From: Hyphomonadaceae bacterium
GTDB taxonomy: Bacteria; Pseudomonadota; Alphaproteobacteria; Caulobacterales; Aquidulcibacteraceae
Assembly: GCA_041917055.1 (NCBI GenBank)
Contig: JAYRYJ010000003.1
Location: forward strand, 153,959-217,958
Length of the DNA: 64,000 nucleotides
Direction of reading: 5' to 3'
This document shows positions 374-30,610 of this stretch, one piece after another; positions within the stretch are counted from its first letter, which is position 1, and the number at the start of each line of letters is the position of its first letter. The translations under genes were made by a program, and so were the position numbers. The notes under the pieces are model-generated. The model saw nothing but the letters and a program-made list of their open reading frames with translations. It searched no databases and was not told the origin of the DNA.

Positions 374-1315
374 ATGGGATTTGGACTGAGCGCATTAACA
401 AATGCTTCGGCTATGGCAGTAAGAAGCCATAATCATGCGCGCGCAAACCTAGAAAAGTCCTCTGCCCGACTTGCCACAGGACAAAAAGTTTCCTCCGCAA
501 AAGACGATGGAGCAGGGTTTATCACCAAAACTACCATGACCAACGAAAGCAATACTTGGGAGTGGCGTAGTTCGGAATTGAAAAGATTTTCCGCAAATTC
601 GGAGCTAAATCAGTTTGTAGTTGAAGAAGGTCTCACTCTTCAAAGAAAGGCGCAACAAATCCTTGCATTTGCGGCAAATACGCAAGCTGGAAGTTCTGAA
701 CGCCAAAAATATGCGCTTGAATGGGCTGAACTTGGTGCCCAGCAAACCGCACTCATAAATGCCCGCAATATGTCACTGGAAAACTATGGCTCTGCTAGTC
801 TTGCCATGACTGGTTATGGCGGCGAGTGGGCATTTGACCCGTATAACACCGATAGTTTGCTAGGAGATGTAACGATTGTCGATGCATGGTGGATGGGCGT
901 AATCACAACAGGTCAGGCGGGGGCGGGCTATACCCCCACAGTGATTACCGTCAATTCTGATTTTTTAAATGCTAGTCAAGCCAATTTAACCCAGGCCGCT
1001 ACCGAAATGTCGGGGTCGGGTGCGGGTATTGCGCGCTCTATTCAAAGAGCTGTACCCGGGATAGCTGGTTCAGTAGATAAAATGGATCGCCTCAAAGCTT
1101 TCTCTGACAAAATGGATGCTATTATTGAAAATGCAAATTCACAGGCTTTTGACACGGATTTGGAAATTGAGTCTGCGAAACTTTCAGCCGCAAAGGCGAG
1201 GATTGAATTATCTCAAAATTCGATTAGCCTATTTTCGAATGCGTTTCGAAGCTATGTGTCAGGGCTCTTGGGCTTTGTTATGAATTCACAGCAATCAATT
1301 ATTAGAACTGTATGA
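374..1315 (+). CDS. Flagellin-family protein (flagellin N-terminal domain; divergent C-terminus)
   Basis: N-terminus LSALTNASAMAV...RLATGQKVSSAKDDGAGF matches the conserved flagellin N-domain (ILTNxSAMxAL...RLSSGLRIxSAxDDAAG). AAGG RBS. 313 aa. Confidence 0.55.
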   Translation: MGFGLSALTNASAMAVRSHNHARANLEKSSARLATGQKVSSAKDDGAGFITKTTMTNESNTWEWRSSELKRFSANSELNQFVVEEGLTLQRKAQQILAFAANTQAGSSERQKYALEWAELGAQQTALINARNMSLENYGSASLAMTGYGGEWAFDPYNTDSLLGDVTIVDAWWMGVITTGQAGAGYTPTVITVNSDFLNASQANLTQAATEMSGSGAGIARSIQRAVPGIAGSVDKMDRLKAFSDKMDAIIENANSQAFDTDLEIESAKLSAAKARIELSQNSISLFSNAFRSYVSGLLGFVMNSQQSIIRTV

Positions 1316-1439: not shown

Positions 1440-1853
1440 TTGCCCATAACAGATACAATGATTGAAGAGAAAAAACCAAAAACACCGCGCAAGAGCGCCA
1501 AAAAATCCCCGCCAATTGATCTAAAAGATATACTTATGAAAAGTCTTGATGAAGATAAGGCCGAGGATATTTTATATATTGATTTACGCGGCAAAAGCTC
1601 ACTGGCTGATGATATGATAATCGCATCGGGTCGTTCCGGTCGCCATGTTGCGGCATTGGCGGACAGATTATTGGGCAAATTGAAAGACAATGGCCTTGGA
1701 AAAGCAAAAGTCGAGGGACTAACCAATTCCGATTGGGTTCTTATTGATGCCGGCGACATTGTTGTTCACCTTTTCCGCCCTGAAGTGCGGGAATTTTATG
1801 CCATTGAGCGTATTTGGGCCGAACCGAAAACCGTTTTGGCTGGTCGAAATTGA
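1440..1853 (+). CDS. rsfS: Ribosomal silencing factor RsfS (Iojap)
   Basis: 137 aa. DMIIASGRSGRHVAALADRLL...WVLIDAGDIVVHLFRPEVREFYAIERIW is typical RsfS. AGGAGG RBS 6 nt upstream of TTG start. Confidence 0.85.
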   Translation: MPITDTMIEEKKPKTPRKSAKKSPPIDLKDILMKSLDEDKAEDILYIDLRGKSSLADDMIIASGRSGRHVAALADRLLGKLKDNGLGKAKVEGLTNSDWVLIDAGDIVVHLFRPEVREFYAIERIWAEPKTVLAGRN

Positions 1854-2323
1854 TAATTAGCCTGCTTGCAGTTTCAAAATTCAAAAAAGAAATTCCCGAA
1901 CAGGCGTTAAGCCTTGATTATTTGGCGCGCGCCAAAGCGCAAGGGCGTCCATCGGGCATCAATGAAGTTCGCTTAATCGAAATCGAAGTGAAAAATGGCA
2001 ATTCCAAAGAATTGGAATCGGCGGCAATTCTCCATGAAATCCCTGATAGTGCCTTTGTTATCGCGCTTGATGAACGTGGGAAAAACCTTTCGTCTCGTGA
2101 ATTTGCGTCTTTGATTGAGAAGCAAAAAGACACCGGACGCCGCGAAATTTGCTTTCTCATCGGCGGGGCCGACGGACATTCAGATTCTTTGCGCGACAGG
2201 GCCGATTTTTTATTATCTTTCTCAAAATTAACTTGGCCTCATAAATTATGCAGATTAATGGCTTCAGAGCAGATTTATCGTGCTATTACAATTTTAGGAA
2301 ATTCACCCTACCATCGCGACTAA
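1850..2323 (+). CDS. rlmH: 23S rRNA (pseudouridine1915-N3)-methyltransferase RlmH
   Basis: C-terminal LIGGADGHSDSL...LTWPHKLCRLMASEQIYRAITILGNSPYHRD is the RlmH SPOUT motif (HPYHRE end). Start TTG 1850 overlaps rsfS stop. Conserved rsfS-rlmH order. Confidence 0.8.
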   Translation: MIISLLAVSKFKKEIPEQALSLDYLARAKAQGRPSGINEVRLIEIEVKNGNSKELESAAILHEIPDSAFVIALDERGKNLSSREFASLIEKQKDTGRREICFLIGGADGHSDSLRDRADFLLSFSKLTWPHKLCRLMASEQIYRAITILGNSPYHRD

Positions 2324-3516
2324 TGCCCAAATTCAAAGCAAAACCATTTAATAAACAAATCATGATGGCCACATTCGCGGCAATCATTGCCATGGTTTTG
2401 CCCCCGCAACAAAAACTTGCCTTGGCGCAATCAAATAATTCAAAAGAATTGCAACAATTGGAAAAAGAGCGCGCCGCGCGTGAAAATCGCGTGACAATTT
2501 TGGAAACCACTAAAACCAAAGCCAATAATGAAATCCTGGCACTGCAACAAAAATTGGTTGAGGCGGCGCAAAATCAAAAAAACGCGGAAATAAATGCCGA
2601 AAAAAGTGAATCGCGATTGAAAAACCTCCGCCTTGCAGAACAGCAAGCCACTCAAGATTTCCAATCAAAAAAAACCGCACTGGAAAACATTGTTATCGCG
2701 TTGATTGGTATCGAAAAAAACCGCCCGCCGCCATTAGCTGTGCAGCCCAAAAATGCGACCGAGGCAGCAAGGGTCGCAATTTTAATGCGCATAATTGCGC
2801 CGCAATTGAATGCTAAAGCGCGCGATATTGCAACGCAAATCGGCAATCTAAAGAAAGTGCGGCAGGATTTATTAATGGGTAATGAGGAATATAGGATTGC
2901 AACTGAAAACCTATTAAATTCGCGCAAAACCACCGCGATTCTTATTGCCGAGCGTCAAAAATTCATCGCCCAATTATCACAAGATGCCGACAGGGAACGC
3001 GATATTATTGCCCAAATTGCACAAAAAGCGTCGGGGCTTCGCGATTTGATTCAAAAAATTGGTTCGGCAATTCCAAAAATGGGCGGTGCAATTTCCGAAC
3101 CGTCTTTGGCGCGCGGTTTTGCAAAGGCCCAAGGCAGAATTTTGCTTCCAGTGAATGGGCAATTGGTTGAAAAATTTGGTGACAAAGTCGCCGAAGGCGG
3201 AAATTCAAACGGTATTAAAATCCGAACTCAAAACAGCGCGCAGATTATTTCACCCTATGACGGAAAAATCGAATTTTCTGCACCTTTTCGCGCTTATGGA
3301 AGGGTTTTGATAATAAATGTCGGCGATTCTTATCGCATTGTTCTGGCAGGTCTGGGTGAAACCTTTGTTCAAGCCGGACAGGAAGTTTTGGCAGGTGAGC
3401 CAATCGGTGAAATGTCGCAAGATACGCGCATAGTTCCCGATTTATATATGGAAATTCGCAATAAAGATGCTACATTAGACCCAATGATGTGGCTGAATAA
3501 AGCGAATGGCGGTTAA
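2323..3516 (+). CDS. M23 family metallopeptidase / murein hydrolase activator (EnvC-like), coiled-coil N-terminus
   Basis: Signal peptide MPKFKAKPFNKQIMMATFAAIIAMVLPPQQKLALAQ, long coiled coil, C-terminal M23/LytM-like domain (GIKIRTQNSAQIISPYDGKIEF...GRVLIINVGDSYRIVLAGL). ATG overlaps rlmH stop (TAATG). Confidence 0.75.
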   Translation: MPKFKAKPFNKQIMMATFAAIIAMVLPPQQKLALAQSNNSKELQQLEKERAARENRVTILETTKTKANNEILALQQKLVEAAQNQKNAEINAEKSESRLKNLRLAEQQATQDFQSKKTALENIVIALIGIEKNRPPPLAVQPKNATEAARVAILMRIIAPQLNAKARDIATQIGNLKKVRQDLLMGNEEYRIATENLLNSRKTTAILIAERQKFIAQLSQDADRERDIIAQIAQKASGLRDLIQKIGSAIPKMGGAISEPSLARGFAKAQGRILLPVNGQLVEKFGDKVAEGGNSNGIKIRTQNSAQIISPYDGKIEFSAPFRAYGRVLIINVGDSYRIVLAGLGETFVQAGQEVLAGEPIGEMSQDTRIVPDLYMEIRNKDATLDPMMWLNKANGG

Positions 3517-3528
3517 TTGGAGTTTTTG

Positions 3529-5001
3529 ATGAATAGCGAGATTAAAGAAGTGAAGAAAACTAAGCCGCGCTTTTCCAAAGTTTGGATTATTCCGATGGTG
3601 CTTGGCTCTGTCGGGTTTGGGATTTTTCTTGGTTCGGCAATGTCGGTATCGGCGCGCAACACTTCAAGCCTGACCGATGCCACACGCCAAAACACTCTAA
3701 AACAATTGGATATATTCGCCAATGTCCTTGCCAAAGTCACAACTGATTATGTGGTTGAACCTGAACAAGACAAATTAATCGCGGCATCAATTAATGGAAT
3801 GTTGCAATCCCTTGACCCGCATTCAAGTTTTATGACGCCGAATGATTTCAAAAACATGCAACAGTCAACCAAAGGCGAATATGGTGGTTTGGGCCTTGAG
3901 GTCACTTCTGACGCCGGCGCTGTAAAAGTTATTTCGCCAATGGATGATTCCCCCGGGCAACGTGCCGGCATTATTGCGGGTGATAGAATTATTGCCATCG
4001 ACGGCAAAAATATTGTAGGCGAACCATTAGACGATTCCATCGAAAAAATGCGTGGCAAACCGAATACGACAGTAGAAATAACCATTGTCCGCGGCGAAGA
4101 AACCAAGGTTTTGAAAATTACGCGCGAAATTATTAAATTGCGCCCTGTCAAATTGAAAATTGAACAGGATATCGCCTATATCCGCATATCAACTTTTGTG
4201 AATGAACATACTTCCGAAGAAGTCGAAAAGGCGCTTGATGAGGTGCAATCTAAATTGGGTAATAATGTCAAAGGCATTATTCTTGATTTGCGCAATAATG
4301 GCGGCGGCCTTTTGGACCAGGCGATAGAAGTCACAGATTTATTCATGGATCGCGGCGAAGTTGTCTCGACGCGTGGCCGTAACCCTGACGATATTGAGCG
4401 CTATTATGGCACTGCGGGGCAAAGATTTGCCGGCGTGCCAATGCTGGTTTTGGTCAATGAAGGTTCTGCATCGGCCTCTGAAATCGTTGCTGGCGCATTA
4501 CAAGACAAAAAGCGCGCCATTATTTTTGGCATGACATCTTTTGGCAAAGGTTCAGTGCAGACCATACTGCCGGTTGGAAATGGTAAAGACGGTGCATTGC
4601 GTTTGACCACGCAAAGATATTACACGCCGTCCGGTCGTTCCATCCAAGGGTCGGGCATTGTTCCTGATTATGAAGTATCTGGTTTCTTTCTAACCAAAGA
4701 GGATATTGAACGCCGCAAAGCGGAGTTCCGCTTTGAAGAAGATTTACCGAACGCTTTGAACAATGATTCCGGCGCAAAGCGTGAAGCGCCGCACATGCCC
4801 AAAGACATGGCACCAAAAGATTGGAAAAAAGAGGATGATTATGTCCTAAAACGCGCAATCCAATTCATTTTAGCGGGAATGCCGAAAGACAAGCCATTAC
4901 CACCTTTGCAAATGGCAAATGCCCCCAAAGCGGACCCCAAAAAACCGCAAAACGGTGGCGTTCCGGTTGTCTTTCCAAAACACGAGCCGAAAAAACAATA
5001 A
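3529..5001 (+). CDS. ctpA: Carboxyl-terminal processing protease (S41) with PDZ domain
   Basis: GGLGLEV..., PDZ (SPMDDSPGQRAGIIAGDRIIAIDG), S41 catalytic region (LVNEGSASASEIVAGALQD...GKGSVQT). GGAG RBS before ATG 3529. Confidence 0.85.
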   Translation: MNSEIKEVKKTKPRFSKVWIIPMVLGSVGFGIFLGSAMSVSARNTSSLTDATRQNTLKQLDIFANVLAKVTTDYVVEPEQDKLIAASINGMLQSLDPHSSFMTPNDFKNMQQSTKGEYGGLGLEVTSDAGAVKVISPMDDSPGQRAGIIAGDRIIAIDGKNIVGEPLDDSIEKMRGKPNTTVEITIVRGEETKVLKITREIIKLRPVKLKIEQDIAYIRISTFVNEHTSEEVEKALDEVQSKLGNNVKGIILDLRNNGGGLLDQAIEVTDLFMDRGEVVSTRGRNPDDIERYYGTAGQRFAGVPMLVLVNEGSASASEIVAGALQDKKRAIIFGMTSFGKGSVQTILPVGNGKDGALRLTTQRYYTPSGRSIQGSGIVPDYEVSGFFLTKEDIERRKAEFRFEEDLPNALNNDSGAKREAPHMPKDMAPKDWKKEDDYVLKRAIQFILAGMPKDKPLPPLQMANAPKADPKKPQNGGVPVVFPKHEPKKQ

Positions 5002-5119
5002 TTCTCAATAGAGAATTAAATTAAAGCCCGTAATTTTAATAAAATCCGCGTCTTCCAAATAACCGGAATGAAACCGCAATGTGATATTCAAACCACGCCA
5101 AGAATGTGGCGGGGGCGAA

Positions 5120-8100
5120 ATGAGTATCGTCGATACGAGCGGATTGTTCAATACAATATATAGTGCACGGTCATATTCTGCACCATCTACACCCTCACGT
5201 CCGTCCGATGCCACAACCCAATATGATAAAAATGCGCCTTGGTCGCCCAGCGCCCCAAAAATAAATGAATCTGCTGAATTGAAGCGCGTAATGGCGGCGA
5301 AATCAGTTTTTGACAATGATGCAGTTAAAATAAAAGCCATGAAAATGTCAAAAGAGAGCGACGCAAAAAAACTATTCGCTCTTCATAAAGCAATGAATCG
5401 AGTGAATATCATCGCTAAAGAAGCCGCAAAAACAACAGTTTCGGATTCGCAACGTGCAAATTATGAAAAGCGCTTCAAAGCAGGCATGAAGGAAATCGAC
5501 GAATATATGACCGGTCTGTCGCTTTCAAATGCCGATTTAATCAAAGGGCTAAGAAATAATGTATTGGAAACCCGCGATTTAAAACAGATTTCGGGAATTA
5601 TGTCAGGTGACAGTTTCGAAGTTTCAAGCGCCGATATGGAAGTGTCGCAATTCGAAAATGCCGCACCCTTTGACATTACTTTGACCAATGCCACCAAGAC
5701 CGCGACTATCAATATCGATTTAAGCAAAATGGGCGAAACCCCGCGAACTCTTAACAATGTCGCGGATTTCATAAATGGGGAAATTGCCAAAGAAGGCTTT
5801 AGTTCGCATTTGAATGTTTCAAAGACTTTCAATAATGCCACTTTCACCTATCAATACGGCCTTAGTCTTGCCAAAACCACAGGCGAAGAAATTGTATTGC
5901 CTCAAGGCACTGGCGAACCGTCTGCGACAGGCGGTAATTTACTCAAGAACACGGAGTTTGACCAAAACAGTGCTGTAATTTGGACCGATTCTGTTTCTGC
6001 GCCGAATTATGTTTTAAATGGAGTAAGTTCAACTGACTTTTGGACTACGTCAGACATTGCTGAGGTATGGCACAGTGTGGACAATACACGGTCAGGCTTT
6101 TTCGATACCGACGCGGTCCTTGGTATAGATGCATATTCTCAGTCTATACAAACAATTGTCGGAAAAACATATAATTTGGAGTTCGACTGGGCGGGCCACA
6201 CTGAAAATAATAACGCCACCACTCGTGAAATGGAAGTTGTTTGGAATGGTGCAGTTGTACAAACGCTCGCTCCAACTGATATGGCGGTCTGGCGCGGCAA
6301 TAAAATTAGTTTGGTTGGGTCGGGTGGGACAGATACTTTAACAATTCGTGAAAAAGCTGGAAGCGGTTTAAACGACCATGTCGGCACTTGGGTAGATAAT
6401 ATTCGTCTAACCGAAGCGATCGAACAAACTGCATTCGTTCCTCAATTAGGCGCGAATTTAGTTCAAAATGGTTCGTTTGAAAACACAAACGGCGTTACCA
6501 ATTGGTTCAATAATAGCTCTAACATGACGGGCACCGAGGTGCGCGGGCAAATGGGTGATCTCGCCAATTGGACCAATCCGACTGCTACTCAATTTTCAGG
6601 CGGCTCTGATTTAATCAGGGGCAAAAATGGTGCACAAATCGGAACCGATGGCAATGTGATTGTTGAATTAGACGGTCAACCAGGTTCGCAGGCGGACGCA
6701 TTAGTGCAAAGCGTGCAAACCGAGGCAGGCAAAAATTATCAATTATCATTCGATATCAGCCATTATAATAATGTCGCTTTCAATACTTCAGGCGTGGAAG
6801 TATTATGGAATGGGCAAATCGTCGGCTTAGCCTATCCGGACACAAATGACGGCATCTGGCGCAATATCACCGTCAGTGTTACCGGCACAGGTGGAATGGA
6901 CCAATTACAATTGCGCGAATTGGCGTCCGAAAATGAATCCGGCGGCGCATTAATTGATAATGTCAAATTGCAGGAAATTCAAAACCTTGACCAACTTATG
7001 CCAAACACGGATGCGCCTACGCGCAAATATGGCGCAAATTTAATAAGCGACGGCGGATTTGAAAATTTGGCGGTTAATATTTTTTCGCCCTTAGTTCCGA
7101 CTTCGACAGCTTGGCAATCAAATAATGGCTATGCCGAAGTTTGGTCCCAAGGTTATGAGATGGGTGGGCCGCAATTTGCCAATGGACATTTCATTGAATT
7201 GGATCACGCAAATGCCGTCGATGCGATAAGACAAACAGTCGTTACCGAAGCGGGCGCTTTGTATCAATTCGATTTTTCCCATGCCATACGAAACTTAGAT
7301 AATTCTGGCGGCGCCGTTACCCCAATCGATGTGTCGAACACAATGGAAGTTGTGTGGAATGGTAAAGTGATGGGGACAATAACTGCGACGCCCGATGGAA
7401 AATGGAATTCAAGCAGGTTTGACCTTATTGGAACGGGCGGGAATGACGTAATAGAAATTCGCGAAACCGCCATCGGAAACGATTATCATGGCCCATTCCT
7501 TGATAATATGCAATTGCGGAAAGTTATTTCCGATAGTCCGTCTAATGCGTCGGGCAGCGGAATTGATTTGCTTAATATTGGCCAGAATGCATGGAACCAA
7601 GAAGGTTCTAATCGCCTCGTCGATCTTGCAGGCGTCAAAGCAGGGGATAGTTTCAAAATCAAAGTCGATGACAAGAAAATTGAAACAATAAAAATCACTG
7701 ACACAATGACACTAAGCCAATTGGCATCAAAACTTAGCTCTTTAATCGGCACGGCGGCGGGAACTGCGAAGGTCAAATCAACCGGACTTTCGCAAAAAAT
7801 CGTTCTTGATCCGAAATTGCGCCATCGCATCGAAATCATTGCCAGTGACATTAAAGTCTCGGCACTAGACGAATTAGGTCTTAATGAGGGCGTCGCGCGC
7901 AAACTTGTGACCGGAAAAGATCTAAAGAAAAGCCCCGCACCGAAAACCGGAATAAATTCCAAAGAGATTGCGGCAATTGAGTTCAAAACCGATTATTCGA
8001 TTGATACAAAACTTCATGCCAAAGACGCAACTACCGCCTTAGAAGGAATGATGCGGCGGGTGCGATTGGCTTATAAAACCGATATGGGAGTTCTAAAGCC

Positions 8101-8194
8101 ATCAGCGACCGGAACCCCTGCCCCACAAATCAGCGCCGCCGACGCCGCAAAAATCAATATGTATAAACAAGCATTAGCAAGATTAAGCGGTTGA
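5120..8194 (+). CDS. Large (1024 aa) repeat protein: N-terminal low-complexity region, three tandem ~160-aa beta-sandwich-like domains, C-terminal Lys-rich region. No signal peptide
   Basis: Three internal repeats share the pattern NG(S/G)FE...Y(N/Q)L(E/S)FD...(M/V)EV(V/L)WNG..V.......W.......GTGG.D.L..RE....G....DN(I/V).L. Start assigned to ATG 5120 (GGGGG RBS). Function unknown. Confidence 0.5.
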   Translation: MSIVDTSGLFNTIYSARSYSAPSTPSRPSDATTQYDKNAPWSPSAPKINESAELKRVMAAKSVFDNDAVKIKAMKMSKESDAKKLFALHKAMNRVNIIAKEAAKTTVSDSQRANYEKRFKAGMKEIDEYMTGLSLSNADLIKGLRNNVLETRDLKQISGIMSGDSFEVSSADMEVSQFENAAPFDITLTNATKTATINIDLSKMGETPRTLNNVADFINGEIAKEGFSSHLNVSKTFNNATFTYQYGLSLAKTTGEEIVLPQGTGEPSATGGNLLKNTEFDQNSAVIWTDSVSAPNYVLNGVSSTDFWTTSDIAEVWHSVDNTRSGFFDTDAVLGIDAYSQSIQTIVGKTYNLEFDWAGHTENNNATTREMEVVWNGAVVQTLAPTDMAVWRGNKISLVGSGGTDTLTIREKAGSGLNDHVGTWVDNIRLTEAIEQTAFVPQLGANLVQNGSFENTNGVTNWFNNSSNMTGTEVRGQMGDLANWTNPTATQFSGGSDLIRGKNGAQIGTDGNVIVELDGQPGSQADALVQSVQTEAGKNYQLSFDISHYNNVAFNTSGVEVLWNGQIVGLAYPDTNDGIWRNITVSVTGTGGMDQLQLRELASENESGGALIDNVKLQEIQNLDQLMPNTDAPTRKYGANLISDGGFENLAVNIFSPLVPTSTAWQSNNGYAEVWSQGYEMGGPQFANGHFIELDHANAVDAIRQTVVTEAGALYQFDFSHAIRNLDNSGGAVTPIDVSNTMEVVWNGKVMGTITATPDGKWNSSRFDLIGTGGNDVIEIRETAIGNDYHGPFLDNMQLRKVISDSPSNASGSGIDLLNIGQNAWNQEGSNRLVDLAGVKAGDSFKIKVDDKKIETIKITDTMTLSQLASKLSSLIGTAAGTAKVKSTGLSQKIVLDPKLRHRIEIIASDIKVSALDELGLNEGVARKLVTGKDLKKSPAPKTGINSKEIAAIEFKTDYSIDTKLHAKDATTALEGMMRRVRLAYKTDMGVLKPSATGTPAPQISAADAAKINMYKQALARLSG

Positions 8195-8252: not shown

Positions 8253-8482
8253 GGGGTTTTATATTTCAATCACAATATTTTGTGCGATTTGTTACGGTGG
8301 CAACCCCCTTGCTAAAAAGCACATAGGTAATAATAAATAATCAGAAATAATTCCGAAAAAAATTATTCAATAAATACAAAGAGAAAACCAGTATTCTCGC
8401 GTTTTGGTTAATTTTACTGTCGCAATTTTAATAAATCGGTAACCTTGTATCCCTAATCGTCGAAAAACAGACGAGAATTATA

Positions 8483-8869
8483 ATGACAAAAGTCCTAGTC
8501 GCCGATGACGATCAATTACTTCTAAGATATCTTTCGCTACACTTGTCAGCATCCGGGTATCTAGTATCCGAGGCCACAAGCGGAAATGAAACGATAGAAT
8601 TAATAAAGCAAAACCCGCCAGATATATTGATTCTAGACTCTATGATGCCACATGGAAATGGTACAAGTGTTGTTGAATTTATTAGGTCAAGCGCTTCATT
8701 GCAAGATTTACCAATAATAATGCTTACCGCGCGGAAAAGTGGCGACGACAAAATAAGCGCATTTGAGGCTGGTGTTGATGATTATATCGTTAAGCCCTTT
8801 CATTTCGGCGAATTAAAATCAAGAATTGCCCGAATTGTCAGCAGGAGCAAGGTCAAATGGAGCGCATAA
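8483..8869 (+). CDS. Single-domain response regulator (CheY-like receiver)
   Basis: VLVADDDQLL...DILILDSMMPHGNG...LTARKS...GVDDYIVKPF: complete REC domain with phospho-acceptor Asp. Confidence 0.8.
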   Translation: MTKVLVADDDQLLLRYLSLHLSASGYLVSEATSGNETIELIKQNPPDILILDSMMPHGNGTSVVEFIRSSASLQDLPIIMLTARKSGDDKISAFEAGVDDYIVKPFHFGELKSRIARIVSRSKVKWSA

Positions 8870-9639
8870 TAGGCTTTATTATTGCGTCTTTGTTTGTGGC
8901 AACTCCTTCCTTTGGCGCACAATGTTCAGACAAATTAGCAAGATTTGGCTTTGAGACCGGTTATAATCAATTGGGCGCCAATCTAAATAATAATGATTGG
9001 CACACGCAAAGCATTGGATTTTTTTCCAAAAATGAAAACTGCGGAGGAAGCATTTTTGCCCGAATTGACAAAAAAACCAGATATTCAAAAACGGACACAA
9101 GTCTCTCATTAGATTTCAACCAAAAAGCAAATGAAACGGACAGTTTTTCTTTGGTTATGGAAACAGCGGCAGACCCGGAATTTTCGGCAAAATTTTCGGC
9201 AAATTTTGAATATTCACGTCTATTAAAAACCGAATCTGACACTTTTGGCAGTGTAATCTTGGGTGCTTCGATTGGATACGCAAAATATCAATTAACGGAT
9301 CTTGCAAAAATTGGTATTCAGGGCGAAATCTACCCTAAGCACTTTCCTGGTTGGATAAACGGTTCTATTGCGCAAGTTTTTGCATATGATAAAGCGCTTC
9401 CGCTTTCTTTTTCTGCGCGATTAAGCCTACCGGTTTCTGATAAGATTATTGCATCAATAGGCGGCGGGCGATATTTTGAAACCTATGCGCAAGATTATAT
9501 GAAAACCGCCGAATATTCAGCCGGACTTCACATAAAACTTACCGAAAAATTTGATATTCGCCTTAATTATCAAACTCTGGCGAGAGAAGGTTTGCCGACC
9601 TTAAACGGCCTTGGCTTGGCAATTGGTTTAAGCCTATGA
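8857..9639 (+). CDS. Secreted beta-rich protein (possible periplasmic/outer-membrane component of the exopolysaccharide-like module)
   Basis: Signal peptide MERIIGFIIASLFVATPSFGA. Alternating hydrophobic/polar segments. Start overlaps REC gene stop by 13 nt. Confidence 0.45.
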   Translation: MERIIGFIIASLFVATPSFGAQCSDKLARFGFETGYNQLGANLNNNDWHTQSIGFFSKNENCGGSIFARIDKKTRYSKTDTSLSLDFNQKANETDSFSLVMETAADPEFSAKFSANFEYSRLLKTESDTFGSVILGASIGYAKYQLTDLAKIGIQGEIYPKHFPGWINGSIAQVFAYDKALPLSFSARLSLPVSDKIIASIGGGRYFETYAQDYMKTAEYSAGLHIKLTEKFDIRLNYQTLAREGLPTLNGLGLAIGLSL

Positions 9640-10685
9640 GTGATTATAGCGCCCAATTCTTAATGGGACTTGGACTATCATTGATTCTGGTTGCCTATTT
9701 CATAGTAATTTATGTTGGCATTAAGCGCAAAATTCTTACACATCGCGAAAAATCTATCAATTTGCAAAAAGCGAAACTTACTGACGAATTGATTGTCAAT
9801 TCAATGATATTCGAAAATGAAGGGCGCTTTGAGCAATTAGGAATCAATAATTCAATGATTCTAGCTAAAGTTTTCGCAAATATGGTGGCATTCTTGGATG
9901 ATGAAAAAAGCTCCAGAGAATTAGTCGCTTATTGCTCAAAGCTAAAATTAGAAAAAACCTTGATAAAACTTTCCAAATCCAAAAATGAAGAAGATAGGAT
10001 TATGGCGTGCCAAGCATTACGCTTTTTTCGAAATCGCGCTGATGCTTTGATAGAAGTCGCAAAGACTGATTTAAGCCAAAGAGTTCGGGTCGAAGCAATA
10101 TTATCTTTGGTTCATTCTTATAAAAGACCTAGTTTTGAAGAATGGTCCCGATGGATATCACTTGCAAGCCCAACCCCAAATGTTGCCATCAAAAGCTTAT
10201 TCAAACGGTCTGAAATAATCGGCATTCACAATTTAAGAAAAATAATATTGCGCTCGAATTGTGATGATATGACCAAGACTTGGGCTTTGGATGAAGTCGC
10301 AAATCGCGATCCCGCACGCGCAAATTCAATCGTCGAGAAACTTATCAATACTGACAATTTGCCAAAGCCTTATATTCGAACAATGATTAATATCATCAGT
10401 TCGCCACGTTTGCTTTCAATAGCATTTGCGCGTTTTTCAAACTCGCCACATTGGGAATTGCGCGAAGCGTGTTGCAAAACCGCCGCATCTATCTATGCCT
10501 TTGAATTATTGGATTCAGTAATGGCATTGATTAATGATTCCGATTTTCGCGTCCACCGTGCCGCAATGCAAGCAACCAAAATATTGGCCGGAATTGGCGA
10601 ATTTCCAGATCCACGTGCTATTCGCTATGGCGCAAAACCGATTTCCGCCAAAACTTCAAAACCTTTTGTGGTGAAGGCTGCATGA
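9636..10685 (+). CDS. Membrane-anchored HEAT-repeat protein
   Basis: N-terminal TM helix (LMGLGLSLILVAYFIVIYVGI). Repeated HEAT/PBS-lyase-like units (EDRIMACQALRFF; RVRVEAILSL; FRVHRAAMQATKILAGIG). ATGA overlap with upstream gene. Confidence 0.55.
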   Translation: MSDYSAQFLMGLGLSLILVAYFIVIYVGIKRKILTHREKSINLQKAKLTDELIVNSMIFENEGRFEQLGINNSMILAKVFANMVAFLDDEKSSRELVAYCSKLKLEKTLIKLSKSKNEEDRIMACQALRFFRNRADALIEVAKTDLSQRVRVEAILSLVHSYKRPSFEEWSRWISLASPTPNVAIKSLFKRSEIIGIHNLRKIILRSNCDDMTKTWALDEVANRDPARANSIVEKLINTDNLPKPYIRTMINIISSPRLLSIAFARFSNSPHWELREACCKTAASIYAFELLDSVMALINDSDFRVHRAAMQATKILAGIGEFPDPRAIRYGAKPISAKTSKPFVVKAA

Positions 10686-12112
10686 GTATCGATTTTGCCC
10701 TAATTATCGAGGCCATCGCGCTTTTGATAATTTTCTCTGGCATAATGCATGGGGTTTTTGCGACATTGCAATTATTTGTCGCCTATGGCGAATATTATTG
10801 CTTACCGCCTATAAATGAAACCAAGGAGCAATGGCTTCATTATGCCGAATTTGCACCGTCAATTTCAATATTAGTTCCAGCGTTCAATGAAGAAAAAACC
10901 ATTCTTTCGAGTGTTGGGGCATTGCTCGCCAATGAATATCCAGACTTTGAATTGATTGTAATAAATGACGGGTCCATCGATGCGACTTCTCAATTATTGC
11001 GTGAAGAATTTGATTTAACACCAATTGAAAAGCCCGAACTTGGGGTTTCTTTTGCAAATTCTTTGCATCATAGACAAATCAAAGAAATTTATCGTTCGCG
11101 CTCATTTAGCAATTTGACGCTTATTGATAAGGAAAACGGCGGCAAAGCTGATGCATTGAATGCCGGCGTTAATATTGCGAAAGGCGAATATATTTGCGTC
11201 ATTGACGCCGATTCAATTCTCGATAAAGACGCATTATTGCGCGCGTCAAAAGCATTTATTAACTCACCCAAGCAGATTGTTGCGATTGGTGGCGCGATTA
11301 GAGTTGCAAATGGCTGCAAGATTAAGGGTAATGAAATATCTGAAATTGGCCTCCCTAAAACCCTTTTGCCATTATTTCAAACCGTTGAATATCTAAGAAC
11401 TTTCCATATTGCGCGCACTGCTATGAGTACAGCAGGCGCTTTGTCGCTTATTTCCGGTGCATTCGGATTATTTTCGCGTGATATTATTGTGAATGTCGGC
11501 GGCTATTCGCGCAACACTGTCGGCGAAGATTATGAATTGTGCCTTCGCATTCACCGTTATTTAGGCGACAAAGGAATTAATGACAAAACTATGGTTTATT
11601 GCCCCGAGGCAATTTGTTGGACGCAAACCCCCGAAAATCTCTCTAGCCTTCGTAATCAAAGAATAAGATGGCAAAAAGGCGCATTAGAGGCGTTGGGGCA
11701 AAATTCAAGATTAATGCTTAATCCAAAATATGGGCGTACAGGTACAATATCAAGTTTTGAAAGCCTGGTTAGCGACGTGCTTACGCCATTAACTGAGTTT
11801 TTGGGCCATTTAATAACCCCTATTGCCGCTATTTTTGGAATACTTAGCATCAAATATTATCTTGCATATTTTGCAATCTCCGCTGCTTTTGGCGTGCTGC
11901 ATTCTGCGGGTGCAATAGTGCTTGAAGAAATGCGGTTTCGTAGATTCCCCAAGATTTCAGATCTTTTTATTCTTTTCGGAATTTCTTTACTTGAGAACTT
12001 TGGTTATCGGCAATTATGCGGGGTCTGGCGATTAATGGGTTTCATCCAGTATTTACAAGGAAAAAAGGAATGGGGAAAAATAGAGCGGCAAGCATTTCTG
12101 ACTTCCGAATGA
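10682..12112 (+). CDS. Processive family-2 glycosyltransferase (polysaccharide synthase; PgaC/NodC/BcsA-like)
   Basis: N-terminal TM, GT2 core with DGS (INDGSIDAT), DAD (VIDADS), GED (VGEDYELCLRI) and QxxRW (QRIRWQKG) motifs, C-terminal TM helices. ATGA overlap with upstream gene. Confidence 0.75.
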   Translation: MSIDFALIIEAIALLIIFSGIMHGVFATLQLFVAYGEYYCLPPINETKEQWLHYAEFAPSISILVPAFNEEKTILSSVGALLANEYPDFELIVINDGSIDATSQLLREEFDLTPIEKPELGVSFANSLHHRQIKEIYRSRSFSNLTLIDKENGGKADALNAGVNIAKGEYICVIDADSILDKDALLRASKAFINSPKQIVAIGGAIRVANGCKIKGNEISEIGLPKTLLPLFQTVEYLRTFHIARTAMSTAGALSLISGAFGLFSRDIIVNVGGYSRNTVGEDYELCLRIHRYLGDKGINDKTMVYCPEAICWTQTPENLSSLRNQRIRWQKGALEALGQNSRLMLNPKYGRTGTISSFESLVSDVLTPLTEFLGHLITPIAAIFGILSIKYYLAYFAISAAFGVLHSAGAIVLEEMRFRRFPKISDLFILFGISLLENFGYRQLCGVWRLMGFIQYLQGKKEWGKIERQAFLTSE

Positions 12113-12441
12113 AATCGGATGAATTCGAAGCCGAAATAACAAAACTTAGAATCAAATATAAAGCGAAACTTGCAATATCGCGTTGTGAGATTTTGAATTT
12201 TATTGATCAAATAGAAGAATTTCCACACGATTCCATAAATTTCGATCAAATGAAAATATTGATACACACTTTGGCCGGCAATGGCGCGACCCTAGGGTTT
12301 GCAACCATATCAAATGCCGCCTCGAAACTCGATTCCTATCTCCAAGAATTCGCTATCAGAGAATATGATTTGCCGACATTAAAACAAATGTCGCGCGACC
12401 TAACGAAAGCAATCGAAAAATCAATTCGCACCGACTTTTAA
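12109..12441 (+). CDS. Hpt (histidine phosphotransfer) domain protein
   Basis: ILIHTLAGNGATLGFATISNAASKLD matches the Hpt HxxKGxxxxxG signature. ATGA overlap with the GT2 gene stop. The upstream in-frame extension from 12016 is likely not translated. Confidence 0.6.
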   Translation: MKSDEFEAEITKLRIKYKAKLAISRCEILNFIDQIEEFPHDSINFDQMKILIHTLAGNGATLGFATISNAASKLDSYLQEFAIREYDLPTLKQMSRDLTKAIEKSIRTDF

Positions 12442-13902
12442 CAGGTGTTCTTCCAAATCATATTCTTTTAATTTGCGATATAGGGTCGAGCGACCAATCC
12501 CTAAACGACGCGCAATTTCGGTCATGTGGCCTGAATATAAATCAATTGCATATTCGATCAAATCGCGTTCGATTTGTTCAAGTTTGCGCAAATGGCCACC
12601 TGGATCAAAAATCGGAATTTGTTGCGCTGTTTCACCATTTGCCGCCACCATCGGCATTGGCATTGGAAGGGGCGCATTGGCGATTTCTTTGAATTCCATT
12701 TCAAACGAATTTGCAGGTTTCAAATCCGGCATTGCCGAAACCAATTGCGGGAAATCTTCATTGGTAAGGAAATCACCATCTGACAAAACCATTGCACGAT
12801 ATAGCGTATTTTCCAATTGGCGCACATTGCCGGGCCAATCGAAGGCCTGCAACAGTGCTTGGGCATTTGGTGCAACGCCCAAAACTTTTTTACCCATGTC
12901 GGCATTAAAGCGCGAAATGAAATGTTTTGACAAGGCCGGAATATCTTCTTTGCGTTCCCGCAAAGTCGGGGCATCAATCGGGAAAACATTCAAGCGATAG
13001 AATAGGTCTTCGCGGAAACGCCCTTCTTGCACCAAACGCGCCAAATCCTTATTAGTGGCGGCAACAATTCTTACATCAACCTTAATCGGGCGTTTTGAAC
13101 CGATTGGATCAACTTCGGATTCTTGAAGTGCGCGCAATAATTTGACTTGCATTTCCAACGGCAATTCGCCGACTTCATCAAGGAATAAAGTGCCGCCGTC
13201 CGCCTCTTGGAATTTACCCATATGGCGTTCATTCGCGCCGGTAAATGAACCTTTTTCGTGACCGAATAGAATGGATTCGACCAGGTTTTCAGGAATCGCA
13301 CCGCAATTGACAGTAATAATCGGGCGGTGGGCGCGCTCGGATTCGCCATGAATTGAACGAGCAATAACCTCTTTACCAACACCGGATTCACCCAAAATCA
13401 AAACCGGAATATTGGTTGAGGCCGCTTTTTGACCAAGACGAATGACTTGTTTCATGCTAACAGCGCCCGCAATCATATCAGCAAAAGTCATTGAGCCTGA
13501 TGCACGTTTTTTAAGGCGGCGCACTTCATTAGTGAGTTCACCCATTTTAAGGGCGTTTCGGATTGAAACTAAAACCCGTTCGGGTGATGCGGGTTTAACA
13601 AAAAAGTCGTTCGCCCCGCCCTGCATGGCTTTAACCACAGTATCGATGCCACCTGAAGCAGTCAGAACGACGACGGGCAAATCTTCGCGTTTTTGGCGGA
13701 TTTGGGCTAAAGCCTCCATGCCACTTACACCCGGCATAATTAGGTCTAGCAAGACAACATCGACTGCGGCATCATTGGCTTGAGCAATTGCTTGTTCGCC
13801 GTCTTCTGCCATTCTTGTGGCAAAGCCTTGTCTTTCGACCGCTGCTTGAAGCAAGCGACGTTGCGCCGGATCGTCATCGACGATTAAAATAGTCTTTGTC
13901 AT
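12421..13902 (-). CDS. Sigma-54-dependent Fis-family response regulator (NtrC/NtrX/FlbD-like enhancer-binding protein)
   Basis: REC domain ([14 protein letters not shown]...VLLDLIMPG), AAA+ sigma-54 interaction domain (GESGVGKE; GAFTGA-like GSFTGA; ESELFGHEKG), C-terminal Fis HTH ([18 protein letters not shown]). Confidence 0.85.
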
Positions 13903-27263: not shown

Positions 27264-27421
27264 ATCAATTACCTAAATTACTTGGGCGGCTCAATTTCTA
27301 CTACTGCTAATGCGTCGCATTCGCGGCCCTCCTTCTCTGCCCGCCACCCAATTCCCCGCTTGCCATTACCCTAAATTGTGTTAGCTTTTGATATGGGTTG
27401 TTTGGCTTTTGAGATTGGGGG
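27264..27421 (+). repeat. Cassette leader element E1 (conserved ~160-bp element preceding an RHS orphan module)
   Basis: ATCAATTACCTAAATTA...GCTAATGCGTCGCATTCGCGG...CCAATTCCCCGCTTGCCATTACCCTAAATTGTGTTAGCTTTTGATATGGGTTGTTTGGCTTTTGAG. Same element at five more sites. Confidence 0.8.
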
Positions 27422-28373
27422 ATTTTTGCCGATTGCGGCGAATGATAATTCATCGGGCGCAACCCTAAGAAAATACGTCCATTCCACGCGTGACGACGAC
27501 CCACAGGTTTGGCTTGAGGGGGTTGGAAACTCTGATATTCGCTATGTTTACGCCAATTATCAAGGCAGCGTGGTTGCCACAACAAATGCCGCCGGAAGCA
27601 CAGTCCAACAATACAAATACGACCCCTACGGCATTCCAAAAGACGCGAGCAATAATGATTCATGGTCGGGCTTTAGATTTCGCTACACAGGCCAACAAAT
27701 CCTCCCCGAAGCCAAGCTATACTACTACAAAGCCAGAGTTTACGACCCCAACCTAGGCACATTCCTACAAACCGACCCAATTGGAACGAAGGATGATTTG
27801 AATCTTTATGCTTATGTGAAAGCGGATCCTGTAAATTTAGTCGATTCAACGGGAACGAAGGTCGTGATTGTTGGAAATCAACGGGCAGCGTTTGTGGCTA
27901 TCCGGATGGCTATGCGTTCTCCCACTTTTGCCGAAAGATACTCTTTTCTCCAATCACATGATGACACATTGACTATCAATGCGTTAAACGGTGTGAAGTC
28001 GTAATATGACCAATTTGCAAAGGAGGCGACATTTGGCACTGATCATGGGATTCAGCTAGGCGATGATGGCGTACTTCCACCATTTGCACAACTTATTCAT
28101 GAAGTAGGAGAGCATGCATTCAATGATTTCAGTGACCACAACAAGTTTTTGACAGATATGGCAACTGGCACGGATGGACTACCTATGAGCTCATCAATAC
28201 AGTATGAAGACGGAACAATTGTTGCAACTCGAAGGAGGGGCGTTACTTCTGTTGAAGAAGAAAATGCAACACAAGGAACCGATGAAATGTTACAGGAAAT
28301 AGGCGATTATCCGAGGCGAGGAGATTATCGGAACGGCACATATTATCAATGTAGGAACGCAATATCATGTTGA
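27378..28373 (+). pseudogene. RHS/YD-repeat orphan toxin module 1: RHS core 3' fragment plus C-terminal toxin domain interrupted by an in-frame TAA at 28002-28004
   Basis: RHS-associated core (RKYVHSTRDDDPQVWLEG...YYYKARVYDPNLGTFLQTDPIGTKDDLNLYAYVKADPVNLVDSTG). The same reading frame is open on both sides of the single stop (…NGVKS*YDQFAKEATFGTDHGIQLGDDGV…HEVGEHAFNDF…). Confidence 0.5.
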
Positions 28374-28837
28374 AGGCAAGTGCTTTAGCGGTGACGTTTA
28401 TTCTTTGCATGCTGCCCAAAGGTAGCCTACCAGAAAAGAAAACTTCTGAATTACTGGAATTATTTAGGACGACGAAAGTGCTTGAGGTTACTTATGCAAC
28501 CGATGTTCACTTGACACCGGTTGGCGACGTTCTCGCGGATAAACGTTTCGGAAAAATCCATTGTAAAAATAATTGTTACACAGACATTCCAGAAATTAAA
28601 GAAATTTTGGAAAAATCGCTAAAGGCGGCAAATAAATCCTGTGAAACAGAATACTCAGGTGGCGTCATTCGCCTTTACGACAATAAAATGAAAAAAATCA
28701 CGCATACAATAATAGTTGATGAGTGGCAGGTTTGTGCAGAAGTCGATGGCAAGGTTTTTATTATTGAACAAGGAATTATTCAACGCCTAAAGGCTGCGAT
28801 CAGGGAACGCGGCACTGTATACACTTTGCCACGATAG
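28367..28837 (+). CDS. Putative immunity protein for module 1
   Basis: 156 aa with N-terminal hydrophobic segment. Overlaps the end of the toxin reading frame by 7 nt, as is typical of toxin/immunity pairs. Confidence 0.4.
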   Translation: MLKASALAVTFILCMLPKGSLPEKKTSELLELFRTTKVLEVTYATDVHLTPVGDVLADKRFGKIHCKNNCYTDIPEIKEILEKSLKAANKSCETEYSGGVIRLYDNKMKKITHTIIVDEWQVCAEVDGKVFIIEQGIIQRLKAAIRERGTVYTLPR

Positions 28838-28882
28838 AGAATCTGACGTCACGTTAGATTTTTGACCTATTTGTGACACCAT

Positions 28883-29040
28883 ATCAATCACCTAAATAAT
28901 TTGCCTGCCTCATTTTTCCAATGCTGCTAATGCGTCGCATTCGTGGTACATCTGCTCCTCCCTCACTCAATCCCCGCTTGCCATTACCCTAAATTGTGTT
29001 AGCTTTTGATACGGGTTGTTTGGCTTTTGAGTTTGGGGAG
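28883..29040 (+). repeat. Cassette leader element E2
   Basis: About 90% identical to E1, including the palindrome AATGCGTCGCATT and the CCCTAAATTGTGTTAGCTTTTGATACGGGTTGTTTGGCTTTTGAG arm. Confidence 0.8.
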
Positions 29041-29949
29041 TTTTTGCCATTTGCGACGAATGATAATTCATCGGGCACAGTCATAAGAAAATACGTCCAT
29101 TCCACGCGTGACGACGACCCACAGGTTTGGCTTGAGGGGGTTGGAAATTCTGATATTCGGTATGTTTACGCCAATTATCAAGGCAGCGTGGTTGCCACAA
29201 CAAACGCCGCCGGAAGCACCGTCCAATTATACAAATACGACCCCTACGGCATTCCAAAAGACGCAAGCAATAATGATTCATGGCAAGGCTTCCGCTTCCG
29301 CTACACAGGCCAACAAATCCTCCCCGAAGCAAAACTCTATTACTACAAAGCCAGAGTTTACGACCCCAATCTAGGTATCTTCCTCCAAACCGACCCAATT
29401 GGCACGAAGGACGACTTGAATTTATATGCGTACGTGAAAGAAGACCCGATAAATCATTCTGATCCAGACGGAAATGGCAGAGTAAAACTTTTTGTTGAGA
29501 CAGTGAAAGGAATATGGAAACGAGTTATACAGAAACAAGCCGTCAATGCAAGGAAAGTCGGAAAAAACGTGGACGTAAAAGGGCCGAAAAGTAACAAAGT
29601 AAGCAAATCAGTCGAAGCAGAAGCGCAAGGAGGTAAAAATAAAGTGGCTAAGCACGATCCCCATGCAACATCTAAGGGCAAGGGAAACAAGCAACCTCAT
29701 TATCAGCCGTCAAAACGAGCGAGTGGTGATGCTGGAAAAGGTCACACTTTTTATGAATCTGCGATTGGGGTTGCCGCGACAGCCAGCGAAGTGGCGAGTG
29801 ACTTGCGTGATAATTTTACAATTGATACAGGTAGCCCCACACTTAACGGTGTTATCGATTTTGTTAATCCTGTGTCCGACGTTTCGGATTTACTTGATTT
29901 AGGGGCTGGAGCGATAACTTTTGGCGTAAACGCTGTGAAGGGCCAATAA
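28996..29949 (+). CDS. RHS/YD-repeat orphan toxin module 2 (RHS core 3' fragment plus Lys/Gly-rich C-terminal domain)
   Basis: The first ~150 aa are nearly identical to module 1 (…YYYKARVYDPNLGIFLQTDPIGTKDDLNLYAYVKEDPINHSDPDG). They are followed by an unrelated 165-aa C-terminal domain. Confidence 0.65.
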   Translation: MLAFDTGCLAFEFGEFLPFATNDNSSGTVIRKYVHSTRDDDPQVWLEGVGNSDIRYVYANYQGSVVATTNAAGSTVQLYKYDPYGIPKDASNNDSWQGFRFRYTGQQILPEAKLYYYKARVYDPNLGIFLQTDPIGTKDDLNLYAYVKEDPINHSDPDGNGRVKLFVETVKGIWKRVIQKQAVNARKVGKNVDVKGPKSNKVSKSVEAEAQGGKNKVAKHDPHATSKGKGNKQPHYQPSKRASGDAGKGHTFYESAIGVAATASEVASDLRDNFTIDTGSPTLNGVIDFVNPVSDVSDLLDLGAGAITFGVNAVKGQ

Positions 29950-30024
29950 ATGACTACTTTGCTTACGCAATTTAAAGTTGTATAGCGCAATATTTTCAGT
30001 AAAATTGATATATATCAAGAGATT

Positions 30025-30399
30025 ATGCCTAGCAAAATAGGCGTGCAAATTCCAGTTTTTGAGAAATCAGCGCCAAATCACGAATTAATTTGGGAAACTG
30101 TTAATTCTTTGACGCCATGTGATCCAAAGAGAATTAAGATAGGAAATAGTGTCGTTGAAAGAAATTTTGCGCACACTGTGAGTTGGGCAACAAATTGGTC
30201 TTTGACAGAAGCGGAATTGCTAAAAGATGAATGGGGCACGGAATCACGGTCGTTTCACACCAGCCTGGTTTTCCAGAAAGATACCTCTATGTGCGGACTC
30301 TTTGTCCATTTGAAAACTAAGGGTCTTCAAGGCTCTACCTCGTATGGTTTGAGAATTTGCCGCGTTGGAGATGATGATTACCTTTGTTGGGAATATTAA
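30025..30399 (+). CDS. Putative immunity protein for module 2
   Basis: 124-aa ORF directly downstream of the toxin C-terminal domain. No known motifs. Confidence 0.35.
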   Translation: MPSKIGVQIPVFEKSAPNHELIWETVNSLTPCDPKRIKIGNSVVERNFAHTVSWATNWSLTEAELLKDEWGTESRSFHTSLVFQKDTSMCGLFVHLKTKGLQGSTSYGLRICRVGDDDYLCWEY

Positions 30400-30451
30400 T
30401 TGTTTCGGATTTTGGGGATTTTGATTTCGGTGTTTATTTCGACGACCATTT

Positions 30452-30610
30452 ATCATTTACCTAAATTATTTGCATAGCTCGTCTTTCTATCTTGCTAATG
30501 CATCGCATCCGCGGCCTTTCTCCTCTGCCCCCCACCTAATTCCCCGTTTGTCAAAACCCTAAATTGTGTTAGCTTTTGATATGGGTTGTTTGGCTTTTGA
30601 GTTTGGGGGT
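30452..30610 (+). repeat. Cassette leader element E3 ('empty' copy, not followed by an RHS core)
   Basis: Carries the left arm, a degenerate palindrome (AATGCATCGCATC) and the right arm, then the alternative junction TTTGTGACGGGGCG shared with E6. Confidence 0.7.

Follow-up and report, generated by a model that had tools for sequence, protein, structure and literature searches.

A divergent FlaY/FlaEY-family protein carrying DUF642/CBM-like repeats in place of the central beta-propeller

The locus and its coding features

The gene under study lies in a 64-kb window, by which we mean the whole stretch of DNA that was analysed, and its features are collected in Table 1. It encodes a protein of 1024 amino acids, as the initial annotation had proposed, and an identical protein (database entry P0001) is known from an NCBI record as well as from a separate, independent Logan assembly. 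In the program-made list of open reading frames the same frame opens upstream, at GTG 5081. We place the start at ATG 5120, which follows a GGGGG stretch, because the resulting N-terminus, MSIVDTSGLFNTIY, aligns with those of the homologues, MAIDNSYLLSLFG and MVISFDPNILVGYY. The protein contains no cysteine. Its highest Kyte-Doolittle mean over any 19-residue window is 0.96, and no signal peptide, hydrophobic or transmembrane segment was seen in such windows along the 1024 residues; the absence of a signal peptide noted earlier is confirmed.

Table 1. Positions of the features within the window, with the evidence for each
Feature	Position	Strand	Evidence
Divergent flagellin-like gene	374..1315	+	Flagellin_N 27.6 bits (cut-off 26.6); PDB flagellins E 5.6e-4 to 0.05
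Target ORF, FlaY/FlaEY-family protein (DUF642-type variant)	5120..8194	+	ATG start, 1024 aa by translation
N-terminal family domain, aa 1-268	5120..5923	+	BLASTP to P0002-P0004; profile search; pLDDT
DUF642/CBM-like repeat 1, aa 270-436	5927..6427	+	Repeat HMM; TIGR04362 stretch; 34-35% identity to repeats 2 and 3
DUF642/CBM-like repeat 2, aa 441-623	6440..6988	+	Repeat HMM; Pfam DUF642 match
DUF642/CBM-like repeat 3, aa 636-805	7025..7534	+	Repeat HMM; BLASTP E ~1e-18 to other repeats
C-terminal family domain, aa 807-1024	7538..8191	+	phmmer; BLASTP to P0002-P0004; pLDDT
C-terminal family motif ISAADAAKINMYKQALARLSG	8129..8191	+	Tails of 95 family members, 840-1100 aa

The gene is flanked upstream by ctpA and downstream by a REC-YaiO-HEAT-GT2 operon. 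A flagellin gene with a sigma-54-type promoter had been noted 3.8 kb upstream, and both the gene and the distance are real. The gene is preceded by a -24/-12 site of the form TGGCA-N6-TTGC (TGGCAAAAAAATTGC, positions 337-351), a pattern that occurs at chance level over the whole window (5 observed, 5.5 expected). However, this flagellin-like gene is divergent, scoring only just above the Flagellin_N cut-off, and its link to the target is weak because four housekeeping genes intervene (rsfS, rlmH, an M23 peptidase gene and ctpA). The tblastn searches of the window with FlgE, FlgK, FlgL, FlbT, FlaF, FlaG and flagellins yielded this weak flagellin-like gene only, and no other flagellar gene was found among the window ORFs scanned. 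The pattern search found no sigma-54 site upstream of the target gene itself, and the sigma-70 and terminator scans gave scores not above those of shuffled sequences.

The GC content is about 44%. Both GC and GC3 are even along the whole target gene, and the longest DNA word shared by the repeats does not exceed 12 nt; on these grounds, a recent acquisition of the central region was rejected.

The flanks identify a divergent FlaY/FlaEY-family member

The protein had been described as novel. Our analyses of its N- and C-terminal regions instead place it in the FlaY/FlaEY family, as a divergent member sharing 21-26% identity with canonical ones. The Pfam model of this family, PF27198 (FlaEY_3rd), matches P0001 and every homologue; these matches are taken from precomputed annotation, the model having not appeared in our own hmmscan of a local Pfam copy. 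A word-indexed homology search with the full-length protein returned four proteins, and the exhaustive HMMER profile search that followed retrieved 529 family clusters, mostly of about 900-950 aa. In BLASTP comparisons with P0002-P0004, aa 38-235 and 810-1024 align and the central regions do not, with E-values of 4e-26, 5e-18 and 6e-17 for the N-terminal domain of P0002, P0003 and P0004, respectively, and of 3e-6 to 2e-7 for the C-terminal domain. Each flank also recognises the family by itself in phmmer searches: aa 1-270 match 150 of the 152 retrieved members, and aa 806-1024 alone match 73 family members.

Residues that are near-invariant in the family are kept in both domains (P40, W41, L85, F86, F119, G122, G143, F184, L201 and N219 in the N-terminal one; L815, G819, L820, G842, F845, L868, G909, L916, L919, G920, L953, Y1015, L1019, R1021 and L1022 in the C-terminal one). 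The chain ends with a divergent form, INMYKQALARLSG, of the family consensus PAYLxxQIANYQAALxRLxGG. The absence of cysteine is likewise a family trait, observed in 99 of the 102 full-length members, including a relative of 2560 aa. The target thus resembles FlaY/FlaEY of Caulobacter crescentus in having an N-terminal domain of about 270 aa and a C-terminal domain of about 215 aa with the same order of elements and an NYQAAL.RL.GG-type terminal motif, in lacking a signal peptide and cysteine, and in its alphaproteobacterial origin.

The AlphaFold2 (AF2) model is of high confidence in both flanks, with pLDDT above 90 for aa 80-260 and about 90-97 in the C-terminal domain, and of low confidence in the N-terminal 40 or so residues. 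A flexible N-terminus is followed by two helices (79-102 and 109-132) and by a beta/alpha subdomain that holds an IN-motif-like segment (aa 184-224). The C-terminal domain consists of beta/alpha subdomains (844-955) and two helices (964-988 and 1006-1023). What had been read as a polar, low-complexity N-terminus and a Lys-rich, helical C-terminus are the conserved, flagellin/FliD-like flanks of the family. For the C-terminal part, the lysine content stands (11.5% K over about 220 aa), but the model shows a mixed beta/alpha region that ends in two helices, not an all-helical one.

Foldseek searches with the flanks returned flagellin and FliD at probabilities of 0.9-0.99, showing that, as modelled, the flanks have folds similar to those at the two ends of flagellin and of FliD, the filament cap protein. 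Any packing of the N- against the C-terminal domain would have to be taken from the full-length model, whose central part is poor because propeller rows were misaligned. At the sequence level, hhalign comparisons of the flank profile were not significant against either flagellin (E 0.014, probability 3%) or FlgL (E 0.59). The target has no match to Flagellin_N/C, FliD_N/C or Flg_bb_rod in Pfam and NCBIfam, and one relative, P0121, has a sub-threshold Flagellin_IN match. Searching PDB sequences with the protein and with the family profile brought up CylK alone, through the canonical propeller, and no solved structure related to the flanks. The cysteine-free architecture of conserved termini around a swappable middle recalls those flagellins whose outer domains are variable or giant, although the target flanks hold extra beta/alpha subdomains that are absent from flagellin D0/D1. 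It differs from the FliD (HAP2) cap in the size and nature of its central module.

The central module and its clade

The middle of the protein holds three repeats in tandem, each of about 170 aa. They are 34-38% identical in pairwise comparisons (BLASTP E ~1e-18), and their HMM boundaries fall within 10 residues of those first proposed. All elements of the motif scaffold described earlier (NGSFE, Y.L.FD, EVxWNG, W, GTGG.D.L..RE and DN..L) were found in the alignment. Repeat 2 matches Pfam DUF642 (PF04862) at 35.3 bits, above the cut-off of 27, and PF04862 is also precomputed on P0001. The NCBIfam choice-of-anchor C model, TIGR04362, matches all three stretches with a total of 62.3 bits, which is below its curated cut-off of 120. 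The repeats are thus beta-jelly-rolls of the DUF642, galactose-binding-domain-like or CBM type, in agreement with the fold suggested by the initial annotation, and by analogy with their fold neighbours they may bind carbohydrates. They resemble DUF642/TIGR04362 domains and the jelly rolls of CBM4, 16, 22, 35, 36 and 61 in their HMM match and in the conserved NGSFE ... DN motifs. Unlike those modules, they sit between flagellar-type flanks rather than on an enzyme or a cell-wall or PEP-CTERM anchor, and neither PEP-CTERM nor any other sorting anchor was found in the target protein, despite the "choice-of-anchor" domain type.

In canonical family members, the corresponding position is taken by a CylK/SBBP-like beta-propeller (E 3e-61 for the canonical central region against the CylK propeller), with a median length of 422 aa as compared to the 538 aa of the three jelly rolls. 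The propeller HMM matches 97 of the 102 full-length members, and the five without a match, the target among them, are exactly those that carry DUF642 repeats. The DUF642 type is therefore a rare variant, with a swapped domain, of a flagellar family that is already known. On flank sequence alone, these five members form an exclusive clade, showing at this level a single origin of the swap. Members of the clade have between 2 and 12 repeats and reach 2560 aa. Two scans of metagenome contigs, with the N- and C-terminal alignments of the clade, gave no confirmed relatives.

The retrieved loci of the two types differ in genomic setting. Canonical genes follow flgE and adjoin flgK/flgL (L001), come after a che operon (L087), or close a flbT-flaF-flagellin-flaG-flagellin array (L088), according to precomputed annotations. 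A scan of genome contigs gave 80 canonical loci, mostly from Caulobacterales (Caulobacter, Brevundimonas, Phenylobacterium and Asticcacaulis). In contrast to these canonical genes, the target gene lies, by the window ORFs scanned, outside a flagellar or chemotaxis cluster, and the three sister DUF642-type loci retrieved (P0043, P0133 and P0052) have housekeeping contexts too.

Export and possible functions

FlaY of Caulobacter crescentus is reportedly a substrate of the flagellar export apparatus and is said to help flagellin polymerise at the tip of the filament. Caulobacter is not known to have FliD. C. crescentus FlaY is described as facilitating flagellin polymerisation analogously to FliD (bioRxiv 10.1101/2024.09.25.614892), and the primary FlaY reference, as cited in PMC11608315, is Kint & Viollier (Cell Rep 2023;42:112890). 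We found no account in the literature of the role of the large central domain of FlaY.

Among the roles that had been considered for the target, we favour that of a flagellum-associated protein and substrate of the flagellar type III system, which is its most likely export route. The protein is a divergent FlaY/FlaEY member that is probably exported in this manner and whose propeller has been exchanged for CBM-like domains. The lack of cysteine, of a signal peptide and of a transmembrane segment, and the low-confidence N-terminal 40 or so residues of the model, lend such export indirect support. According to this explanation, the flexible N-terminus would target the protein to the flagellar type III apparatus for export. 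Helices from both termini, together with the adjacent beta/alpha subdomains, would dock on the growing axial structure like the "legs" of FliD, and the central module would face outward, with the protein acting at the filament tip. With the propeller replaced by three jelly rolls, the exposed part would therefore consist of probable glycan-binding modules in tandem. The location of the target gene and of its retrieved sister loci outside flagellar clusters argues against this explanation, and so does the lack of sequence-level similarity to flagellin and FlgL in the hhalign comparisons. Moreover, the target lacks the propeller present in 95% of the family, and the polymerisation function may be lost if the propeller is needed for it. 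Such variation in repeat number as the clade shows would be less expected of a stoichiometric cap than of an adhesin.

An alternative is a neofunctionalised FlaY paralogue that retains flagellar type III export through the kept flanks but has lost the filament role, and that acts as an adhesin or lectin for glycans, either released or attached to the tip. This would be the secreted adhesin of the initial annotation built on a FlaY framework. The position of the retrieved DUF642-type loci away from flagellar and chemotaxis clusters, the variable repeat number with the resulting very long proteins, and the rarity of the clade all speak for such a paralogue. On the other hand, the near-invariant residues and the C-terminal motif are kept in the flanks, which indicates continued selection for the ancestral interaction, and we regard this alternative as rather unlikely. 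The absence of a signal peptide, the modular repeats and the non-flagellar neighbourhood would also agree with a CBM protein that is secreted or displayed at the surface without any tie to the flagellum, leaves the cell by type I or another secretion system, and resembles flagellar proteins only by coincidence. Yet both flanks are homologous, with high significance, to a family embedded in flagellar operons, and the anchor that such a protein might carry is absent. Type I secretion, which had been suggested for the target, finds no support here: the protein has no RTX repeats or HemolysinCabind match, and no T1SS genes (ABC/MFP/TolC) were found among the window ORFs scanned. We consider this non-flagellar explanation highly improbable.

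The legacy names "regulatory protein FlaEY" and "transcriptional regulator", the latter borne by one NCBI family member, would imply a cytoplasmic regulator of flagellin gene expression. Older genetics indeed indicated that FlaE/FlaY modulate flagellin expression, and a mutant of a Sphingomonas homologue showed altered fliC expression (PMC8921679). However, neither a DNA- nor an RNA-binding domain was found with Pfam and NCBIfam, the flanks are flagellin/FliD-like, and the absence of cysteine across the family, together with the CBM or propeller middles, fits an extracellular protein. Failed assembly feeds back on expression through flagellar checkpoints, and the reported expression effects would be expected as such feedback, leaving a regulatory role for the target with very little credibility.

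If the favoured explanation of a tip-docking family member is extended to the repeats, the target might be a flagellar tip lectin, that is, a polysaccharide-binding probe on the tip of the rotating flagellum. Binding to host glycans is also known for FliD of some pathogens. We put this proposal forward only as a speculation that is more likely wrong than right; if true, it would imply attachment, for example to algal or particle glycans, and would mean that FlaY can do without its central propeller in polymerising flagellin. The swap clade offers a natural experiment in this respect, with a variable number of carbohydrate-binding-type modules between two conserved flanks. Should filaments still grow with the help of the DUF642-type proteins, the polymerisation activity would reside in the flanks alone and the middle would serve as a free display platform; otherwise, the clade is a record of how a flagellar export substrate came to be used as a secreted adhesin. 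In either case, re-annotation would be due for many database entries now named "hypothetical protein" or "transcriptional regulator".

Membership in the FlaY/FlaEY family and the exchanged central domain

Full-length homology searching gave three informative relatives (P0002–P0004), which can be aligned to the window protein only at aa ~38–235 and ~810–1024, have unrelated middles, and carry precomputed Pfam PF27198 (FlaEY_3rd). When the N-terminal alignment was used for an exhaustive HMMER search, 529 clusters (50% identity level) were recovered at E up to 1e-3 and 193 at E up to 1e-30, with members mostly ~900–950 aa long. The near-invariant residues of the N and C flanks are kept in the window protein, and the strongly conserved C-terminal end of the family, PAYLxxQIANYQAALxRLxGG, reads ..AAKINMYKQALARLSG. 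Because both flanks and PF27198 match while the commonest central domain is not found, the window protein is best classed as a domain-swap variant within a family already known, which the initial annotation had not recognized in the termini, rather than as a canonical member or a new kind of system.

The whole-family profile matches the CylK beta-propeller (E 3e-61). When the middles of canonical members (median 422 aa) were used to build a propeller HMM, it matched 97 of 102 family representatives no shorter than 750 aa. The remaining five are precisely those that carry DUF642 repeats: the window protein (1024 aa, three repeats), P0133 (762 aa, two partial), P0043 (1721 aa, at least six), P0052 (2050 aa, at least six) and P0046 (2560 aa, 12); a sixth sequence, the fragment P0055, is outside the five. 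Since these five form one exclusive clade in a neighbour-joining tree of the flanks alone, the propeller was most likely replaced once, and repeat copy number diversified later. The swap offers a natural way to ask what purpose the central domain of FlaY serves.

The initial annotation described the repeats accurately, and every motif that it listed is common to all three. They share 34–38% pairwise identity (BLASTP E ~1e-18); repeat 2 exceeds the gathering score of Pfam DUF642, and all three stretches match NCBIfam TIGR04362 (choice-of-anchor C) below its curated cut-off. The repeats are old, being neither a recent duplication nor an assembly artefact, because GC and GC3 are even along the whole gene and DNA words shared among the repeats do not exceed 12 nt. 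The identical protein occurs in an NCBI assembly and in an independent Logan assembly. A mechanical ORF list starts the gene at an upstream GTG (5081); the ATG at 5120 has a G-rich ribosome-binding site 5' of it, and the resulting MSIVDTSGLFNTIY aligns with the family consensus N-terminus M-x-x-x-x-x-D-x-S-x-L-x-x-x-Y.

Coordinates of the features (nt of the window unless marked aa)
Feature	Position	Strand	Remarks
Divergent flagellin-like gene, 313 aa	374-1315	+	N-terminus ...RLATGQKVSSAKDDGAGF
Window protein ORF	5120-8194	+	Intact, 1024 codons
Repeat 1	aa 270-436	+	HMM built from the three repeats
Repeat 2	aa 441-623	+	Same HMM; DUF642 match
Repeat 3	aa 636-805	+	Same HMM
Sigma-54-like site TGGCAACCCCCTTGC	8298-8312		Second in window; 5' of four-gene operon
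Single-domain response regulator	8483-8869		Operon gene 1
YaiO-type outer-membrane beta-barrel	8857-9639		Operon gene 2
HEAT-repeat protein	9636-10685		Operon gene 3
Family-2 glycosyltransferase	10682-12112		Operon gene 4; chitin- or cellulose-synthase-like matches
Sigma-54 activator (REC-AAA-HTH)	12421-13902	opposite	Convergent to operon

Predicted structure and proposed function

A full-length AlphaFold2 model, computed from an 84-sequence family alignment, is confident at aa 40–260 and 810–1024 (mostly pLDDT >90). Its middle is poorly modelled, since the alignment set propeller sequences wrongly against the repeats. The N flank comprises a flexible N-terminus, 24-residue helices at 79–102 and 109–132 and a beta/alpha subdomain; after the middle module, the C flank comprises beta/alpha subdomains (844–955) and terminal helices (964–988 and 1006–1023). 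As modelled, the flanks are flagellin/FliD-like; no sequence-profile link of the flanks to flagellin or FlgL was found. We also observed that hhalign places the second long FlaY helix and the next turn (SQRANYEKRFKAGMKEIDEYMTGLSLSNADLIKG; aa 109–143, nt 5444–5548) on flagellin ND1 (SARSALNEDFKSLRDQIAKTTANADFDGSNMIK); the segment recalls the flagellin motif "EIDRIA..T.FNG..LL.G", and the alignment is not statistically significant (E 0.014, probability 3%).

Near-absence of cysteine is typical of flagellar axial proteins. Cysteine is absent from 99 of 102 full-length FlaY-family representatives (maximum one), proteins of 1721–2560 aa included, and from the full sequence of the window protein, which also has no signal peptide and a Kyte–Doolittle mean of at most 0.96 in every 19-residue stretch. 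The primary FlaY paper, by Kint and Viollier in 2023, reportedly describes secretion dependent on the flagellar apparatus and transfer between cells. Caulobacter crescentus FlaY is described as facilitating flagellin polymerization by a mechanism analogous to FliD (bioRxiv 10.1101/2024.09.25.614892), and a passage of a flagellin sialylation preprint places cap proteins, or factors that play a like part in polymerizing flagellin, at the distal filament end, in wording that does not name FlaY (bioRxiv 10.1101/2023.12.03.569772). Such a role fits the flagellin/FliD-like flanks, the absent signal peptide and the near-total lack of cysteine, and because of this fit we propose that the window protein would be exported via the flagellar type III system, that its flanks would dock on the distal axial structure, and that three CBM-like modules would be displayed where canonical FlaY displays its propeller. 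Among the roles offered by the initial annotation, that of a flagellum-associated type III substrate is the best supported. Given the swap, a flagellar tip that binds glycans is conceivable.

Genomic setting and competing readings

The 80 loci from the genome scan come in the majority from Caulobacter, Brevundimonas, Phenylobacterium and Asticcacaulis. Canonical members lie directly after flgE and beside flgK/flgL (L001), at the end of flbT-flaF-flagellin-flaG-flagellin (L088), or after a che operon (L087). The window gene lies outside any flagellar cluster, between rsfS, rlmH, an M23 peptidase gene and ctpA upstream and the REC-YaiO-HEAT-GT2 operon downstream. Across the whole window, tblastn with flagellar seeds found only the divergent flagellin-like gene; other scanned ORFs encode cbb3 oxidase, pheST, aroKB, hydrogenase maturation proteins and similar.

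The three sister loci retrieved (P0043, P0133 and P0052) are also in housekeeping contexts. These settings, and repeat numbers that range from 2 to 12, sustain the reading that the clade has lost filament assembly and become a secreted or tip-bound adhesin, which we regard as possible, if clearly the less probable course. Older genetics, summarized in PMC8921679, called FlaEY a "regulatory protein" on the ground that flagellin expression is altered in its mutants, and one NCBI family member is still named "transcriptional regulator"; a purely regulatory cytoplasmic role is very unlikely for a protein with such flanks. Type I secretion of an adhesin, the other export route raised initially, is just as improbable.

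At the locus of P0043 (L085, 1–15166), this protein lies within ~10 kb of an rsfS-rlmH-M23-ctpA block, as compared with window 1440–8194; the block is inverted, with other genes between it and P0043, and suggests a remnant of shared locus ancestry. In L001 (1–12736), the canonical FlaY homologue P0002, together with flgE, flgK and flgL, lies within ~1.6 kb of genes for a TrwB/TraG coupling protein and a TrwC relaxase; a conjugative element may carry this set of flagellar genes.

Other features of the window

The flagellin-like gene scores just over the cut-off for Flagellin_N and has no Flagellin_C match. A canonical sigma-54 -24/-12 element, TGGCAAAAAAATTGC, lies 22 nt before its ATG (span 337–1315), and the gene is isolated between a divergently oriented gene and rsfS. 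The region 8298–13902 looks like a sigma-54-controlled unit for exopolysaccharide synthesis and export; GC falls to 39.8% within 8–12 kb of the window. Further along, on the forward strand (27378–34673), ORFs at 27378–28004, 28367–28837, 28996–29949, 32693–33406 and 33570–34673, all without a Pfam match, surround an RHS-repeat ORF (31599–32834), and a locus for polymorphic toxins or RHS proteins may lie here.
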